64,000 bases of DNA from an uncultured Gammaproteobacteria bacterium (GTDB taxonomy: Bacteria > Pseudomonadota > Gammaproteobacteria > Pseudomonadales > UBA5518). Below are positions 1 through 28,005 of the stretch, in pieces. The first letter of the stretch is position 1, and every line of letters begins with the position of its first letter. Below the pieces are notes generated by a model that did not search any database, was not told the DNA's origin, and saw nothing but the letters and a program-made list of their open reading frames with translations. The position numbers and the translations under genes are program-made. Location of the stretch: the NCBI GenBank assembly GCA_903928015.1, contig CAIYPF010000116.1, forward strand, positions 27,084 to 91,083. The letters are read 5' to 3'.

Positions 1-658
1 CGGGCAACACCTTTCCCACTGCACGCGCAGCGCCCGTGGTGGTGGGGATGATGTTCTCGGCGGCCGCGCGGCTGCGGCGCCAGTCGGTGTGCGGGACGTC
101 CGCCAGGCGCTGGTCGTTGGTGTAGGCATGCACCGTGTTGATGAGCCCCTCAACGATCCCGAATCGCTCGTGCAGCACCTTGGCCACCGGTGCCAGGCAG
201 TTGGTGGTGCAGCTCGCGTTGGAGACGATGCGGTGCTCCGGCAGCAATCCCGCGTCATTTACCCCCAGCACGACGGTGTAATCGATCTCGTCCTTCGCGG
301 GCACCGTGAGCAGTACGCGCCGGGCTCCGGCGGCAAGGTGCTGGGCAGCCTGCTCGCGGCGGGTGAACTTGCCAGTGGCCTCGATCACCACATCCACCCC
401 GAGATCACCCCAAGGCAGCGTGGAAGGCTCCTTGGCGGCGAGGATGCGGGTGCGTCCGTGCTGCGTCACAACCTGACCGTCCTCGAGCGCAAGCGGTCCA
501 CCAAAGCCGCCCATCACCGTGTCGTAGCGCAGCAGGTACACAAGCGCCGCCGGATCGAAGATGTCGTTGATCGCAACCACCTCGACATCGGGGCGGCGAT
601 CGAGGATGCGGAACACGGAGCGTCCGATGCGGCCGAAACCGTTGATGGCGACTTTCAT
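1..658 (-). CDS. gap: Type I glyceraldehyde-3-phosphate dehydrogenase, N-terminal ~219 codons (C-terminus lies outside the window)
   Basis: Hand translation of the minus strand from the ATG at 658..656 gives [19 protein letters not shown]...[19 protein letters not shown]...TVHAYTNDQ...[18 protein letters not shown]. It has the canonical NAD-binding GxGxxG and the SCTTNC active site (Cys codon 209..211). It is absent from the ORF track because it has no stop in the window. Its ATG overlaps the stop of the upstream gene (ATGA). Confidence 0.9.
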
Positions 659-1674
659 GCGCGGTCTCCGTTGTCGATCGCTGCATAGGCGCGGACCACG
701 TCGAGCACGCGGCAGGCATGTCCCAATGTCTCGTACCAGCCAAGGGCCTTCAGCAGGCGCCGCCCCGCACGCTGCGTTGCCTGCGTGTCGAAGAGCAGCG
801 ACTGCGTGCAGCCGATGACGTCAGACGAGACGATGGGATCGATGGCAATGCCTATCAGTTGCGGCCGCTGGGCAGCAGCGGCAACAAGCGCGGCATTCAC
901 CGCATCGATGCCCACTTCATCGCGGGACAGCACGAAATCGACATCGAGCAGGGAGCCGCGCTGGACCGGCACGTTCAGGGCGAGCCCCGATAGTCGGCCC
1001 GCGAAACGCGGCATGAGGTGCTCGACCCAGGCCGGGGAGTGATTGGCGTTGGGAATGATGTTCTGGGCTGCAGAACGGCTGCGACGCTCGTCGCCCTGCG
1101 CATAATCCTGCAAGGGCTGGTCGCTGGTGTACGCATGGATACTCGTCATGCTCGCGTAGTCGACGCCGAAAGCGCGATCGACGACATCGACCAGCAGGGC
1201 GAGCGCGTTGGTGGTTGGAGAGCCTGCGCAGACAACGCGGTCGGCGGCTGAGGCTTCGGCATCGTTGATGCCGGGAACCAGAAGCCGGTCCGGCGCGTCC
1301 TCGCACAGCGTCGCGTAGAGCAATCGGCCGGCACCCGCAGCCAGTTGCTTCCCGGCGTGATCGCGCGTGCGCAAGCGTCCCGTCGCATCGATGACGCAAT
1401 CGACGCCGAAGGCATCCCACGGCACATCACCCGGAGCACCGGGCTGGAGCATGCGCGCGGAAAAACCCGGCCCGCGCAGGTAATTGCCTTCGAGACGGCA
1501 GTTGAAGTCATCGCCCGTCGTTTCGAGCAGATAACGCAGCACTTCCGGTTTTCCGACGTCGGCGACGGCCACGATCTCGATATCCGGCATCGCGGCAGCC
1601 AGACGGAAAATCTGTCGCCCGATCTGGCCGAGCCCCATCAGGCCGATGCGACAACTGCTCGCGGATGAAGACAT
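655..1674 (-). CDS. GAPDH-family paralog lacking the catalytic cysteine (probable pseudoenzyme or regulatory subunit)
   Basis: The 339-aa ORF keeps a GAPDH-like N-terminus ([16 protein letters not shown]) and SIHAYTSDQ / [12 protein letters not shown] blocks. The active-site block reads AGSPTTNAL instead of SCTTNCL (Pro codon 1216..1218), and the TTGAAKAV block is replaced by ANHSPAWV. There is a GAGG-type RBS upstream and a 4-nt ATGA overlap with gap. Confidence 0.8.
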
Positions 1675-1688
1675 GCGCTTCGCCTCGT

Positions 1689-2198
1689 CTAGCTTATGGC
1701 GATGGTGCGACCGGAGGGTTTGTCCGTCTTGGGCATCACCACTTCAAGGACACCGTCGCGGAAACTCGCCCGGGCCTTGTCTGCCAGGACATCTGCAGGC
1801 AGGGCTACCGCTCTCTCGAAACTGCCGCTGCTGATCTCCCGTCGATGATAGTCGCCGGTGTCATCGGATGTCTCGCTGCGCGTCTGGCCACGTATCGTGA
1901 CGACGCCCTCGTGCAGGGATACTTCAAGGTCTTCCTTCGTCACGCCGGGAATCGCGGCTTTCAGCACCAGTTCCTTGCCGCGATCGAGCAGGTCGATTTT
2001 CGGCGCCTGCTCCATGTGCGGCCAGCCCGACCCTGCGAGCGCGGGGAAGCCGAGCCGTGACAGGAGGCCGTGCGAGAGCCGGTCGAAGAAGAGATCCATA
2101 TCGGCCAGTGGCGACGAAGGATGTTCAGTCGGCTGGGGCACAGCGGATTTCGTATGACGACGTTTGCTCACGGCTGTTTTTGCGACTCTGGTATCCAT
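1689..2198 (-). CDS. Hsp20/alpha-crystallin family small heat-shock protein
   Basis: The 169-aa ORF has an alpha-crystallin domain (PKIDLLDRGKELVLKAAIPGVTKEDLEVSLHEGVVTIRGQ...FERAVALPADV...ASFRDGVLEVVMPK). It ends 14 nt upstream of the next gene. Confidence 0.9.
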   Translation of the reverse strand: MDTRVAKTAVSKRRHTKSAVPQPTEHPSSPLADMDLFFDRLSHGLLSRLGFPALAGSGWPHMEQAPKIDLLDRGKELVLKAAIPGVTKEDLEVSLHEGVVTIRGQTRSETSDDTGDYHRREISSGSFERAVALPADVLADKARASFRDGVLEVVMPKTDKPSGRTIAIS

Positions 2199-2200
2199 GC

Positions 2201-2650
2201 CTATATCTCCATTGAGGTGGATGATTTGGAAGCCGGGGCTGTACGCAGGGCAGGCCCGCCGGCATTTGCAAGCGCTCCGCCTTCATCGAGCAGTTGCCGC
2301 AACAGCGCCCGCATCGAGGGAACGACCATGCTGTCGCGGTCATCGACCTCAAGCGCCATGCCGCCTTCTTCGCAGCGGCGCACATGGGCACGCACGCGAC
2401 GCATCACACAGTCGCCGGATTCGCTGACGGGAAACTCGACCTCGAGTTGCTGGTTGGGCCGCAACTCCCCGTAACCGGTGTCGACGAAAATGCCACCGCG
2501 GCTCGCATCGCGGATGCGCCCGGTGGCCACCGGGATGCCGCAGCGGTAAATCAACATCGGGATGTCCGCGTCCATCCGTGCGTGATACCTGTGTTCCATA
2601 GCGTCCTGCTCCTGCTGCATCTGCGATTGCAGTGTCCGCGAGGCAGGCAC
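2201..2650 (-). CDS. PilZ-domain protein (putative c-di-GMP receptor)
   Basis: It has an RxxxR motif (RYHAR) followed about 25 aa later by D-x-S-x-x-G (RDASRGGIFVDT). Its stop is 2 nt before the hsp20 start. The start is uncertain; ATGs at 2650 and further in are both possible. Confidence 0.7.
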   Translation of the reverse strand: MPASRTLQSQMQQEQDAMEHRYHARMDADIPMLIYRCGIPVATGRIRDASRGGIFVDTGYGELRPNQQLEVEFPVSESGDCVMRRVRAHVRRCEEGGMALEVDDRDSMVVPSMRALLRQLLDEGGALANAGGPALRTAPASKSSTSMEI

Positions 2651-2708
2651 GGCGAACGATGACGCACGTCAAACAGAGAGAGACACGGGGCTACGGGCGA
2701 ATACGTAC

Positions 2709-4184
2709 TCAGCCGCCGAGGCGGGCATAGCGCGCAAGCATGTCGCGCAGTCTGCGCGCGAGAGCGGCATCCAGCACGCTGCCCTCGCGCAGCTGCCAGG
2801 CCCAGTTTCCGCGCGCAACACCTGGCACGTTCATGCGCGCCTCGCTGCCCAGCGCGAGTACATCCTGCAGCGTGAGCACGGCTACCCGCGCGACCGAGGC
2901 AAGCGCGGCCCGCATCAGTGTCCATGGCATGTCGCCAGCGTGCTGCCCGAAGTAGCCGAGCACCTGTTCGCGGACATTCGCATCCAGAGAGCCAAACCAA
3001 CCCAGCGTGGTGTCGTTGTCGTGCGTGCCGCTGTAGGCAACGGACATTTCGGTGTGGTTGTGCGGAAGATAGGGATTGCCCGGGTTGCCGTCGAAGGCAA
3101 ACTGCAGCACCAGCATGCCCGGGAGTGCGTTCGCGCGGCGCAATGCATCGACGGCGGGTGTGATGGTGCCGAGATCCTCCGCGACCAGCGTGCCTGGGCC
3201 CGCCGTCGCAACGAGCGCCAAGAGCAATTCGCGTCCTGGCGCCTGCACCCAACGGCCATCTGCAGCTGTGAGCGCCTCGCGCGGGACCTCCCAGCAGGAC
3301 TCGAATCCGCGGAAGTGATCGATGCGCAGCATCGCGAAGCGCTCGCGCTGCAAGGCGATGCGCCGTCGCCACCACGCGAAGTCCTCGCGCGCCATAGCCT
3401 CCCAGTCGTAGTGCGGATTTCCCCAGCGCTGGCCATCGGCGCTGAAATAATCGGGCGGAACGCCGGTTTCCACCGCGAGCGAGCCGTCATCGCCGATGCG
3501 GAAAAGATGCCGAGAGGCCCAGACATCGGCACTGTCGCGCGCCACGAAAATGGGCACGTCACCGAAAAATTTCACGCCGAGTCCCAGCGCGTAGGCCTGC
3601 AGCTCACGCCACTGGATGTCGAACACGTATTGCTCGAAGCAGAGCGCCTCGACGCGCGAGGCGTGCATCACGCGCGCCTCGCAGAGCGACTTCGGCTCCC
3701 GATCCCGCAAGGCTTCAGGCCACAGGTACCAGGGCACGTCACCCAGGGACTCGCGCAGAGCCGTGAACAGCGCGTAGTCCTCGAGCCAGTGCGCATTGCG
3801 GGCGCGGAAATCCCCGAAGCCTGCGTGCAATGCGTCTCCGGCACGGGAACTGAAGCGGGAAGCCGCGAGAATCAGCAACCCGGCGCGTGTGCCGGGTACG
3901 GCACGCGCACGGGCCAGATCCGAGGCGTCCAGCAGATCGCGGTCGTGGAGCCAGTCAAGGCTGATCAGCGCGGGGTTGCCGGCGAAGGCCGACAGGGCAT
4001 CGTAGGGAGAGAGGTCCCGGTGCGGCGGCACGACAGGCAACATCTGCCAGAGGCCGAAACCAGCAGCAGCAAGAAACTCCACGAACCGATAGGCGGAGTG
4101 CCCGAGATCGCCCGCCCCGTAGGGCGATGGCAGTGAGGTGGGATGAAGCAGCAAGCCGGCACGGCGGCGACTCTCCTCAGCCAT
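2709..4184 (-). CDS. malQ: 4-alpha-glucanotransferase (amylomaltase)
   Basis: The 491-aa ORF has the typical GH77 N-terminus [22 protein letters not shown] and is full length. Its start overlaps the glgC stop by 8 nt. Confidence 0.9.
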
Positions 4185-5433
4185 GGGGGCCCAGCATGTC
4201 TCTGGTCACCAGCACGATGCCTTTAGGGGACACATGGAAGCGACGCGCGTCCTCGGCGTGGTCGTAGCCGATCACGGTACCGGGCGGGATCACGCAGCGC
4301 TTGTCGATCACGGCACGGCGTATGCGGCAGTGTCGCCCCACCTTTACCAGGGGAAACACCACGCTGTCCTCGATGCGGGCAAAGGAATGCACGCGCACAT
4401 TCGAGAACAGCAGCGAACGACGGATGCTCGCACCCGAGACGATGCAGCCACCGGAGACCATGGAGTCCACGGCCATGCCGCGACGCCCTTCCTCGTCGTG
4501 CACGAACTTGGCGGGCGCAACCTGTTCCTGCCAGGTCCAGATGGGCCACTCGGCGTCGTAGAGATCGAGATCAGGGGACTTGCCGATCAGCTCCATGTTG
4601 GACTCCCAGAAGGAGTCCACGGTGCCCACGTCGCGCCAGTAGCCCTGCCCGCCGTTGTGCGGATCACGGAAAGGGTAGGCCTGCACTTTCATGCGGCGGA
4701 TGAGAGCGGGGATGATATCGCGGCCGAAATCGTGCGCGGACGCGGGATTGGCGTGGTCGCGCCCGAGTTCCTCGAAGAGCACGCGGGTGCTGAAGACGTA
4801 GATGCCCATCGATGCAAGGGCGCGATCGGGCTTTCCGGGCACGGGGCGGGGATGCTCGGGCTTTTCCTCGAACTCCGTGATGCGGTAGTCGTCGTCGACG
4901 GCCATCACCCCGAAGGCGCTCGCCTCGCCTATCGGGACCTCGATGCAGCCTACCGTCACGTCGGCGTCGTTCTCGACGTGCGCCGCGAGCATGGTGCCGT
5001 AATCCATCTTGTAGACATGGTCCCCGGCGAGAATCAGCACCCATTGCGGGTCGTGGTGACGGATGATGTCGAAGTTCTGCAGTACGGCGTTGGCCGTGCC
5101 TTCGTACCACGAGGTCTCGATACGCTGCTGCGCGGGGAGAAGTTCGACGAATTCGCCGAGCTCCGCACGCAGGAAGCTCCAGCCGTGCTGGATGTGCCGC
5201 AGCAGCGAGTGGGACTTGTACTGGGTGAGCACGGCAACGCGGCGGATGCCGGAGTTGACGCAATTGGATAGCGGAAAATCGATGATGCGGAATTTGCCGC
5301 CGAAGGGCACTGCCGGCTTGGCGCGCCAGTCGGTGAGCTGCTTCAGACGGGAGCCGCGGCCTCCGGCCAGTACCAGCGCGAGAGTCTCGCGGGTGAGCCG
5401 GCTGACGAAGCGGCCCGAGTGCGGGTTCGTCAT
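4177..5433 (-). CDS. glgC: Glucose-1-phosphate adenylyltransferase
   Basis: ORF 4177..5682 is trimmed to the ATG at 5433 ([30 protein letters not shown]), which is preceded by GAGAGGGA. The sequence is GlgC-like throughout. The 83-codon extension upstream is Arg/Ala-rich with no homology signal. Confidence 0.9.
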
Positions 5434-5584
5434 GAGAAATCCCTCTCTGCGTTGGCCGGCGAGCTGCCTTGCCCGTGTGGAATGCCAATTTTCAGGGAAG
5501 ATCATGACACCCTTGCGCTTGCCAACCCAGACCATCTTTTGTTCGCATGACGCAACCGCCCCACCAAGGGCCGAGTAGACACGT

Positions 5585-7057
5585 ATGCGCATCCTGTTCG
5601 TGAGTTCAGAGGTTTTTCCCTTCGCCAAGACGGGCGGTCTTGCCGACGTCTCGGCCAGCCTGCCGCGGGCCCTGCAGGCCATCGGCCACCAGGTGAACGT
5701 GCTGATGCCGGCCTACCGCGGGGTGCTCGCTGCCGCACAGCCACTCGGCGTGCGCTTGCGCCACGCCACCGAAATCGACGGCCACGGGTTGCGGCTCTTC
5801 GAATCGCGCCTGCCAGGCAGCCGTAACAAGTTATGGCTCCTCGACTGCCCGGCGCTCTTTGATCGAGCCGGCAATCCCTACCACAACGAAAGCGGGCACG
5901 ACTGGCCGGACAATCCGGTCCGGTTCGCACTGCTCTGCCGCGTGGCGGCGCTGCTCGCCTGCGATGCCTTCGGGCTGGGCTGGCAGGCCGATGTGCTCCA
6001 CTGCAACGACTGGCAGACCGGGCTGGTGCCGCTGCTTCTGCACGAGCAGGCGGCGCGCCCCGCCGTGGTGTTCACGATCCACAACCTCGCCTACCAGGGG
6101 CTGTTCCCGGAGAGCGCTTTTCACGCGCTGCGCCTGCCCGCGCGCCACTGGCACCCTGACGCGCTCGAGTTCCACGGGCAGATGAGTTTCATCAAGGGCG
6201 GAATCGTCTTCGCGGACCGGGTGACAACGGTGAGTCCCACCTATGCCGCCGAGATCCGCACAGCGGCTTTCGGCTGCGGGCTGGAGGGTTTGCTGCAGCA
6301 CCGGTCAGCGGTGCTCTCCGGCATCCTGAACGGCATCGACACCAGCGTCTGGAACCCGCTGCGCGATCCCGCGCTGGCGCAGGGATTCGGCGCCACCAGC
6401 CTCACCGAAAAGCGCGTGAACAAACGGGCAATCCAGTCAGAACTGGGGTTGGCCGAAGATGCAGACAGTGTGCTGCTGGGCTCCATCGGACGCCTGGCGG
6501 AGCAGAAAGGCGTCGACCTGATCGCCGGCGCCTTGCCGGCGCTGCTGCGGGGGGGCGCGCAGTTCGTGCTGCTGGGCAGCGGGGATTCGCGCTACGAGCA
6601 GGCGCTCGCGGAACTTTCGCTGGCCTTCCCCGGACGCGTGGCGCTGCGTCTGGGCTATGACGAGGGCCTGGCGCATCGTATCGAGGCGGGCGCGGATATC
6701 TTCCTGATGCCCTCGCGCTTCGAGCCCTGCGGCCTGAACCAGATGTACAGCCTGCGCTACGGCACGCTGCCGGTGGTGCATGGCGTAGGCGGACTTGCCG
6801 ACACGGTTGTCGATGCCTGCGAGGCCAGCATGAAAGACGGCAGCGCGACGGGCTTCGTGTTCCACGAGCCCAGCGCAGCGGCACTGGGCGAGTGTGCGCT
6901 GCGGGCGATCACGCTGTGGCGCGAGAACCCGGAGGCCTGGGCCCGGATGCAGGTGCGGGGCATGCGTACCGACTTCTCGTGGCGCGCCAGCGCGCGTGCC
7001 TATGAAGATCTCTACGCCGCGGCGCTCGCGCAACTGCACGCCGCCCGCTGCGCCTAG
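5585..7057 (+). CDS. glgA: Glycogen synthase (ADP-glucose type)
   Basis: The N-terminus [22 protein letters not shown] is typical, and the 490-aa protein is GT5-like. It is divergent from glgC. Confidence 0.9.
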
Positions 7058-27057: not shown

Positions 27058-28005
27058 TCAGGTGAGGAGAAAAAGAAGCACGAGGTTGCAGACGAAAAGC
27101 GGCAAGGCAGTGAACGCCTGCGCCTTGAGAACCGCATGCTGGTCGCGCAGGCCGAGCAACGCGACCGGCACAACGTTGAAGTTGGCAGCCATGGGTGTGA
27201 GTAGCGTCCCGCAATAGCCTGCAAGCATGCCCAGCGCCGCAAGCGGCGCTGCATCAGCGTGATGCTGCGTAACCAGCACCGGCAAGCCGAGACCGATCGC
27301 GATGACGGGAAATGCTGCAAAGGCATTACCCATCACCATCGTGAGCAGGGTCATGCCGAAGGCGTAGGCCGTAAGAGCAACCGCGTGGTTTTCCAGCGGC
27401 AGACTCGCTGTGAGCGCGCTGCTCAGCAATTCACCGATTCCCGCGCGTGCGAAGACGCTTCCCAGCACTGCGAGCAGCAAAGGCAGAAGCGCCGCCCAAC
27501 CGATCGCCTCGAGCAAATGACGTCCGCCCTCCAGCGCTTCGCGGGGCGAGGCACGCGTTATGCGCAAGGCCACGAGCAGGGAGATCGTGCAGGCGATGCC
27601 AAGCGCGACCACCGTAGTCTGAACAGGAGACACCAACGGGGTTCCGGATATCTGCAGGCGGCTCACACCCAGCGCAACGGCGAGTGTCAGCAGCGAGACG
27701 AGCAGCACTGGCACGAGCAGCAGATGCCCGAGTCGCTTCGCGCGCTCGCGCAGGAGTGGCTGCGCGACGGGAACATGCTGGCCCGCGCGCAGCCCTCCGC
27801 ATCCCGCTACAAGAGCGAGGAGTATCACCATCGCACCGAGCGCTTCGGCGGGAAGGCTATCCCCCGCAAGGAAACCCGTTGCCAGCAAACCCCAGAACAA
27901 TCCGCTGGAAAAGCGCCGCGGGTTGCTGCGGTCGCCGAAAGAGAGCAGCGCGACAGCAGCAAGGAAAATCCCTGCCAGCGTGTAGACATGCGCAAGCCCG
28001 ATCAT
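27058..28005 (-). CDS. DUF979-like integral membrane protein (putative transporter subunit)
   Basis: This is the C-terminal 315 codons of ORF 27058..28797, starting at the ATG at 28005 ([21 protein letters not shown]...). It is polytopic and hydrophobic. There is an ATGA overlap with the upstream gene, which is in another frame. Confidence 0.7.

Follow-up and report, generated by a model that had tools for sequence, protein, structure and literature searches.

A conserved GAPDH paralog lacking the catalytic cysteine and its paired gap gene in bacteria: a candidate non-catalytic subunit

What is the role of a glyceraldehyde-3-phosphate dehydrogenase (GAPDH) paralog that lacks the catalytic cysteine and whose gene runs directly into an ordinary gap gene? 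This question is raised by a 64,000-nt stretch of DNA from an uncultured gammaproteobacterium (positions 27,084 to 91,083 of contig CAIYPF010000116.1, assembly GCA_903928015.1; this whole stretch is referred to below as the window). A gene encoding a 339-aa Cys-less GAPDH paralog, here called psi-GAPDH, is located on its minus strand at 655..1674. The gene is followed by the first 219 codons of a canonical gap gene (2..658, minus strand), which runs off the window. It was found that psi-GAPDH is under strong purifying selection and is obligately linked to, and inherited together with, its partner gap. The protein probably serves as a non-catalytic subunit of a mixed GAPDH.

Loss of the catalytic cysteine and conservation of the paralog

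Psi-GAPDH has both GAPDH domains, Gp_dh_N and Gp_dh_C (Pfam E-values of 2.5e-14 and 2.2e-33). Its N-terminal start is [20 protein letters not shown], with the Rossmann start MGLGQIGR. At the site of the canonical SCTTNCL block it carries AGSPTTNAL, in which Pro153 (CCA codon at 1216..1218, read on the minus strand of the window) occupies the position of the catalytic cysteine and alanine that of the second cysteine. The block [18 protein letters not shown] is present, and ANHSPAWV is found where canonical enzymes have TTGAAKAV. An initial annotation of this DNA had listed the 339-aa open reading frame (ORF), its Rossmann start, the histidine in SIHAYT, AGSPTTNAL and ANHSPAWV, and all of these were seen as claimed. 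Residue roles and the Bacillus stearothermophilus numbering were assigned to psi-GAPDH positions from the GAPDH literature and presumably apply here. In the window protein, Pro153 stands at the nucleophile position, Asn234 replaces Arg231 and Thr316 replaces Asn313, while His180, Arg198, Ser152, Thr154, Asp185 and Asp39 are kept.

The protein resembles type I GAPDH (GapA; TIGR01534, PF00044 and PF02800) in its two-domain fold, GxGxxG motif, Asp32, His176, Arg195 and S-loop. It differs in the missing cysteine, the replacement of Arg231 by Asn, the changed Thr208 and Gly209, the Ser or Thr at Asn313 in 67 of 72 orthologues and its placement in a clade of its own. Its TIGR01534 score was 206.8 bits, below the equivalog cut-off of 367.2, and it scored below the cut-off for each of the nine NCBIfam GAPDH or erythrose-4-phosphate dehydrogenase models that it matched. 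Assignment to Epd was rejected (TIGR01532, 157.1 bits against a cut-off of 530.55; no cysteine), as was assignment to the ArsJ-associated GAPDHs (NF033735, 157.9 bits against a cut-off of 450; gap is the sole conserved neighbour). The AlphaFold2 model had a predicted local distance difference test score (pLDDT) of 87.2, and Foldseek superposed it on solved GAPDH chains with template modelling scores of 0.86-0.89 (about 0.88). A search of the PDB with the protein found nothing nearer than ordinary GAPDHs (best E-value 2.7e-52), and a protein atlas search returned only generic GAPDH cluster names. Identity with the product of the neighbouring gap gene was 38%. In the monomer model, the S-loop (residues 184-204) had a pLDDT below 50. 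As a sign of oligomerisation this disorder was rejected, since the model of the canonical partner drops likewise at residues 180-207 and the feature does not discriminate.

The extent of the family was determined in proteins and in genomes. In a search of 5.8 billion proteins, 1527 of the 8000 candidates scored had an E-value of 1e-20 or lower, and the 120 best were listed. These 120 relatives (58-100% identity) carried Ala (87 proteins), Pro (32) or Gly (one) where the nucleophile would be; Cys was found in none. A genomic scan with one genome per species gave at least 599 pattern matches, at least 549 of them confirmed by tblastn, and the locus analyses were carried out on the best 80. The record titles of these 80 loci name Gammaproteobacteria (Pseudomonadales, Cellvibrionales, Halieaceae and Exilibacterium tricleocarpae R142), Candidatus Binatia, Deltaproteobacteria/Syntrophobacter, Chloroflexota, Verrucomicrobia, Candidatus Neomarinimicrobiota and Candidatus Acidoferrum. 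On 72,556 plasmids searched by tblastn, the matches were all ordinary gap genes with less than 40% identity.

Seventy-two clean gene pairs, namely the window and 71 loci, were compared. Locus L026, with a fused ORF, loci L013, L033 and L038, with the partner cut by the contig end, and loci L025, L066, L068, L073 and L080, with one gene incomplete or missing at the contig end, were left out. The nucleophile position was occupied by Ala in 63 orthologues and by Pro in nine, and Cys was not found there. A relocated nucleophile was likewise rejected, as no Cys was conserved across the 72 orthologues and the commonest one occurred in 44. The active-site cysteine is indispensable for the thiohemiacetal mechanism of GAPDH. 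Because the nucleophile is gone in all 72 proteins and no other Cys is conserved, this mechanism is impossible for psi-GAPDH, in agreement with the earlier claim that the paralog cannot be a GAPDH. Judging from these sequences, the loss of the cysteine is ancestral and universal in the family.

His176, Arg195, Ser148, Thr150, Asp181 and Asp32 were kept in all 72 orthologues, and the position of Arg231 was Asn in all of them. At the anion sites, Thr179 was Thr or Ser, Thr208 was Asn, His, Ser or Ile, and Gly209 was variable. The position of Asn313 was Ser in 54 proteins, Thr in 13, Asn in four and Ala in one. The GxGxxG motif and Asp39 were invariant, the position of Arg10 was mostly Gln or Glu, and two new invariant residues, Asn209 and Asn234, appeared in the pocket region.

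No internal stops were found in the 72 gene pairs, and 68 columns were invariant over 31 psi-GAPDH orthologues from the sampled lineages. By the Nei-Gojobori method, the ratio of nonsynonymous to synonymous substitution rates (dN/dS) of the psi-GAPDH gene was 0.032-0.140 for all but one of 16 close pairs; the exception, at 0.258, had a dS of only 0.046. The corresponding values for the partner were 0.022-0.102 in 14 of the 16 pairs. Of the two exceptions, one gave 0.357 and contains a shortened partner of 309 aa from locus L010; in the other, dS was saturated. The psi-GAPDH gene is under strong purifying selection, which the initial annotation had proposed to verify by dN/dS. Strain-specific decay of the gene, which it had named as the outcome that would speak against its interpretation, is contradicted by the low dN/dS and by the absence of the Cys in all relatives examined.

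Cys-less GAPDH-like proteins were also seen outside the family (representatives P0124, P0126, P0129, P0134, P0135, P0137, P0140, P0142, P0143, P0166 and P0169). Their nucleophile position is Ser, Asn, Val, Pro, Ala or Gly. They mostly share IIPN and an Asn at the position of Arg231, a few having Lys, His or Ser instead.

Obligate linkage to a dedicated gap gene

The partner is an intact GAPDH gene. Its complete form lies in the contig at G000:C116:26743-27741(-), G000 being the genome of the window, and encodes 332 aa with Gp_dh_N and Gp_dh_C domains by Pfam. Its catalytic and binding motifs are intact (SCTTNCL, [13 protein letters not shown] and YDNEWGY), the catalytic Cys150 being encoded by a TGC codon at 209..211(-) of the window sequence. 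The 219 aa visible in the window alone scored 288 bits on TIGR01534 (cut-off 367.2). The NASCTTNCL nucleophile block and the GxGxxG block were identical in all 72 partners; the other canonical blocks varied slightly, and one sequence was gapped at the WYDN block. The partner belongs to a dedicated clade of type I GAPDH and is no arbitrary gap copy.

The two genes are joined by a four-base ATGA overlap at 655..658(-), in which the TGA of the psi-GAPDH gene (657..655) overlaps the ATG of the partner (658..656). Reading of the minus strand confirmed both this overlap and the downstream SCTTNCL, with its Cys codon at 211..209, as first described. A Shine-Dalgarno-like GGAG motif lies within the last psi-GAPDH codons (666..669, minus strand), 7 nt before the partner ATG, and GGTG or GGAG was seen just ahead of the partner ATG at many orthologous junctions by eye, without counting. 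A gap gene of the partner clade (65-92% identical to that of the window) was found directly downstream on the same strand in 77 of the 80 loci. In the other three (L025, L073 and L080), the contig ends inside the psi-GAPDH gene or at most 70 nt after it. The ATGA overlap recurred at 52 of 75 junctions; eight had a one-base overlap, one a 10-base overlap and one (L026) a fused ORF, and the genes were spaced by 1-3 nt in five and by 14-15 nt in eight. No neighbour other than the partner gap was universal across the 80 loci. Furthermore, a DNA run of a separate study yielded three contig pieces of the psi-GAPDH gene, each with 0-1 mismatch. Since the same arrangement was found in 77 of 80 loci and the gene was recovered from an independent DNA run, it is not a product of chance or of assembly error.

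At L026 (6940..7060), from a delta-proteobacterial metagenome-assembled genome, the psi-GAPDH gene and its partner are joined in a single ORF of 672 aa. The fusion is caused by a 1-nt insertion (TT instead of the T of L027) just ahead of the stop codon. Proteins P0131, P0167 and P0139, which contain several GAPDH units, were set aside as irrelevant, as Cys is kept in every nucleophile block found in them.

The linkage was also followed by co-occurrence. In a sample of 400 genomes of the class, psi-GAPDH (E-value of 1e-60 or lower) was found in four, the genome of the window and three of one other genus. GAPDH of the partner clade (66-100% identity) was found in exactly the same four, and the next best match had 57% identity; the class-level comparison thus covers four genomes of two genera. 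Within the genus of the window, 13 of 15 other genomes carried the psi-GAPDH gene, with the partner adjacent in 12 and the contig ending in one. Genome G416 of this genus, which is 100% complete, lacks both genes, and G422, which is 75% complete, shows neither. From this distribution, the module is gained or lost as a unit. In another genome of the genus, an intact psi-GAPDH gene adjoins a partner gap (L089, G417:C11, 477..1480, minus strand) that is frameshifted after approximately residue 251, owing either to an error of assembly or to real breakage of the partner.

The three genomes of the other genus carry a divergent Cys-less relative, which is 43-44% identical to psi-GAPDH, has Ser in place of Cys and keeps the WYDN block. 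At locus L090 (G042:C18), such a gene (4624..5646) has an ATGA overlap with a partner-clade gap (5643..6644), and its product has IPNWTWSP where IIPTSTGA would be expected. Because this Ser-type subclade is also paired, the pairing predates the split of the Cys-less subclades.

A quick LG+G4 tree of 85 rows was built from 24 pairs, 13 wider Cys-less proteins, 23 canonical representatives and the gap of the same genome on contig C37. The psi-GAPDH proteins formed one clade (Shimodaira-Hasegawa-like approximate likelihood ratio test, SH-aLRT, 100; P0121 and P0122 inside), and so did the partners (SH-aLRT 100; P0132 included). The psi-GAPDH clade was nested in a larger Cys-less GAPDH-like group, which the starred branches of the tree divide from the canonical GAPDHs. 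Conservation of the Cys-less clade and its linkage to gap, the first check proposed for this locus, is thus borne out by a single well-supported clade and by linkage in every case that could be examined. The internal groupings of the two clades matched; in both gene trees, the lineage of the window grouped with Binatia, delta-proteobacteria and Chloroflexota, apart from other Gammaproteobacteria. These matching groupings indicate that the two genes moved together. Pairwise distances in the two families were correlated (r=0.94), and psi-GAPDH evolves approximately 1.55 times faster than its partner.

A possible heteromeric GAPDH and its alternatives

The complex of psi-GAPDH with its partner was modelled with an alignment of 31 rows for each protein. 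The interaction prediction score from aligned errors (ipSAE) was 0.79 (0.79, 0.80 and 0.79 in the three runs), against 0.38 for the best of three controls; 116 of 157 solved complexes and 2 of 215 mismatched pairs came up to this mark. At least 99% of contacts were shared between the runs, and the pLDDT of the partner chain was at least 89. The modelled interface is a symmetric surface of the catalytic domain and S-loop, which in our reading corresponds to the P-axis dimer interface of GAPDH. Predicted interface columns of the psi-GAPDH family had a conservation of 0.82, compared with 0.71 for the remaining catalytic domain, and matched the partner consensus in 55% of cases, compared with 39% elsewhere in that domain. 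This conservation is suggestive of pairing.

With moderate confidence, we favour the view that psi-GAPDH belongs to a heteromeric GAPDH of glycolysis as a subunit that has no catalytic function and probably binds a ligand. The downstream gene would supply the active subunit, and translational coupling, via the ATGA or a closely spaced stop and start, would tie production of the paralog to that of the active subunit. The two proteins would assemble via the ordinary dimer interface (P-axis type) into a mixed oligomer, most simply alpha2beta2. Psi-GAPDH would then occupy positions in the oligomer while its dinucleotide site and one half of its site for the substrate phosphate were retained; it would probably bind the dinucleotide and perhaps a phosphorylated ligand. 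Its role may be regulatory, ligand-sensing or stabilising, and would not be that of a dehydrogenase. If this is true, a core step of glycolysis would have both a quaternary structure and a mode of regulation that are new, owing to a conserved dead-paralog partner.

Several points weigh against this view. We infer the hetero-oligomer, its stoichiometry, its ligands and any effect on activity from genes and a model. The model may have passed owing to likeness to solved GAPDH homodimers. Because the GAPDH dimer is a textbook structure, what the score shows is that the surface is still GAPDH-like, and not that a heteromer is formed or preferred over homomers. The control scoring 0.38 was one in which psi-GAPDH was kept and the GAPDH was replaced, and the complex model cannot tell a heteromer from separate homomers. 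Shared ancestry and structural constraint alone would also be expected to give the distance correlation and the interface conservation; for the former, a common history would suffice. Natural fusions were looked for in proteins of 595-2000 aa and not found at an E-value of 1e-40 or lower, which is weak evidence, and the fused ORF of L026 could be an assembly indel error if it is not a real fusion. Finally, the invariant His176, Arg195, Ser148, Thr150 and Asp181 would fit a chemistry of the protein's own as well.

The last point leads to the main alternative, which we consider rather unlikely. Psi-GAPDH might be an independent homo-oligomeric enzyme with a new Cys-independent activity in the same pathway, for example, a His-assisted oxidation or reduction, dependent on nicotinamide adenine dinucleotide (NAD), of a phosphorylated alcohol; the pair would then be a metabolic operon whose products form no complex. 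The residues just named, together with GxGxxG and Asp32, are invariant in all 72 proteins, Asn209 and Asn234 are new invariant residues of the pocket region, dN/dS is as low as that of a working enzyme, and the genes lie in a context of central carbon metabolism. However, the nucleophile position is variable (Ala, Pro or Gly, and Ser, Asn or Val in wider relatives), and this variation indicates that the residue there has no chemical role. The phosphate sites at Arg231 and Thr208/Gly209 are changed, and Asn313, which is conserved in the canonical WYDN block, is lost in 68 of 72 orthologues. Moreover, the exclusive one-to-one link to one dedicated GAPDH clade across phyla, in most cases with the stop overlapping the start, is, in our judgement, tighter than that between neighbours in a pathway. 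A further version of a new enzyme is doubtful. In it, the retained His176, Arg195 and dinucleotide site would serve Cys-independent chemistry on a phosphorylated intermediate by a protein that is docked on, or channels to, its dedicated GAPDH. If such a docked enzyme exists, it would represent an undescribed step or bypass of central carbon metabolism in several bacterial phyla.

It is equally doubtful that psi-GAPDH is a free ligand-binding or moonlighting regulator which senses NAD(H) or a triose phosphate, or binds another macromolecule, acts only transiently on its partner or on other targets, and forms no stable hetero-oligomer. Retention of the dinucleotide motifs with loss of the catalytic residue would agree with such a role, as would the linkage to PilZ and Hsp20 genes in the lineage of the window. 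Nevertheless, no more than 9-10 of 80 loci have these neighbours, and the partner gap is the sole universal one; in addition, conservation within the catalytic domain is highest at the dimer-interface positions, and the complex model passes. Lastly, the possibility that the gene is a decaying gap duplicate, which the loss of the catalytic Cys and several binding residues might suggest, is refuted by the reading frames intact in all 72 orthologues, dN/dS of about 0.03-0.14, the 68 invariant columns and at least 549 matching stretches in a one-genome-per-species collection, and is extremely improbable.

GAPDH is usually described as a homotetramer. In the chloroplast A2B2 GAPDH (GapA/GapB), which consists of two paralogous subunits, one is regulatory; regulation proceeds via a C-terminal extension, and both subunits keep the catalytic Cys, whereas one member of the bacterial pair is catalytically dead. 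The Ser or Thr that occurs naturally at Asn313 in 67 of 72 psi-GAPDH orthologues resembles the N313T mutant of Escherichia coli GAPDH (PDB 1gae/1gad), although the latter was made by engineering one substitution into an active enzyme. This mutation reportedly affects NAD binding and cooperativity. Among complexes of other folds, some subunits of the mammalian phosphoribosyl pyrophosphate synthetase (PRPS) complex are non-catalytic. This complex is a heteromeric metabolic enzyme of specialised duplicated paralogs (PMC12238573); it differs from the present pair in being eukaryotic, in its fold and in that its genes are not in an operon. The prozyme of trypanosomatid S-adenosylmethionine decarboxylase is a dead paralog that forms a heteromer with the active enzyme, and its activating effect was established experimentally (PMC6221367). 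We propose this prozyme as the paradigm for psi-GAPDH, although it has a different fold and is eukaryotic, and for psi-GAPDH both complex formation and an effect on activity are putative.

The nearest published case of a Cys-less GAPDH homologue, within the literature searched, is the flagellar TbGAPDHL of Trypanosoma brucei. In this protein the nucleophilic Cys152 is replaced by Pro, inactivity is predicted, and retention of the adenosine portion of the cofactor site is considered possible; it is described as a relic of a pathway since lost, with poor conservation between species, and no mention of its being paired with an active GAPDH was noticed (PMC4106842). The bacterial protein, by contrast, shows strong conservation and invariably has an active GAPDH as its pair. 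In the literature searched, outside of which most subscription journals lie, no bacterial Cys-less GAPDH paralog paired with gap was found. What is new here is apparently a pseudoenzyme partner of an active paralog for GAPDH, in bacteria, which is widespread and apparently obligate. Where psi-GAPDH records are named, they read 'glyceraldehyde-3-phosphate dehydrogenase' or 'NAD-binding domain-containing protein'; because of the GAPDH-type names, metabolic reconstructions count an enzyme that is unable to work as annotated.

Genomic and metabolic context

In the window, the pair ends a same-strand run of glgC, malQ, pilZ, hsp20, the psi-GAPDH gene and gap. By Pfam, an Hsp20-family gene (1689..2198, minus strand) lies 14 nt upstream of the psi-GAPDH gene and is probably in the same operon, and a PilZ-domain gene (2201..2650, minus strand) precedes it. 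They are followed outward by genes for the 4-alpha-glucanotransferase MalQ of glycogen metabolism (2709..4184, minus strand) and a glucose-1-phosphate adenylyltransferase-like GlgC (4177..5682, minus strand), which probably starts further downstream than its listed ORF; glgA (5585..7057, plus strand) is divergent. Among the 80 loci, Hsp20 was a neighbour in 10, PilZ in nine and MalQ in nine. It is unusual for PilZ and Hsp20 genes to separate glycogen genes from a GAPDH module; this arrangement is kept in the relatives of the window (9-10 of the 80 loci).

Glycogen or central-carbon genes (those for MalQ, GlgC, GlgA, GlgB, GH57, glucan phosphorylase, glucokinase, Zwf, Pgl and phosphoenolpyruvate carboxylase were counted) were found within 6 kb in 37 of 80 loci. 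MalQ and GlgC lie beside the pair in the relatives of the window, and TrmB, GH57 and glucan phosphorylase in Neomarinimicrobiota. In other Gammaproteobacteria, the neighbours are phosphoenolpyruvate carboxylase, Zwf with Pgl, or glucokinase, or GlgA with GlgB. The module thus works in sugar and glycogen catabolism.

The genome of the window has a separate gap-pgk cluster on contig C37 (G000:C37:10383-12611) and a third, long GAPDH-type gene at G000:C215:5159-5941, the best model match of which is PRK08289, that is, three canonical GAPDHs and the dead paralog in total. Since the genome has its own gap-pgk copy, the pair is an additional system there. In four of six Neomarinimicrobiota genomes, the only Gp_dh_C matches above the cut-off were those of the pair, and the other two had extra Gp_dh_C fragments at contig ends. 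With the pair as the sole GAPDH in those four genomes, central glycolysis must be carried there by the mixed system or by the partner.

In a comparison of metatranscriptome run X20 with positions 1..2700 of the window, nothing was found on the psi-GAPDH gene, so that its expression was neither demonstrated nor excluded; the run gave two 151-nt contigs inside the Hsp20 gene and short pieces on generic GAPDH motifs.

At least one carrier of the pair, Exilibacterium tricleocarpae R142 (locus L039), is cultured. At this locus, a toxin-complex-like gene with RHS-repeat, SpvB and TcdB-mid/N domains lies about 1.5 kb upstream of the pair (L039, 1..4501, minus strand) and is probably unrelated to it.

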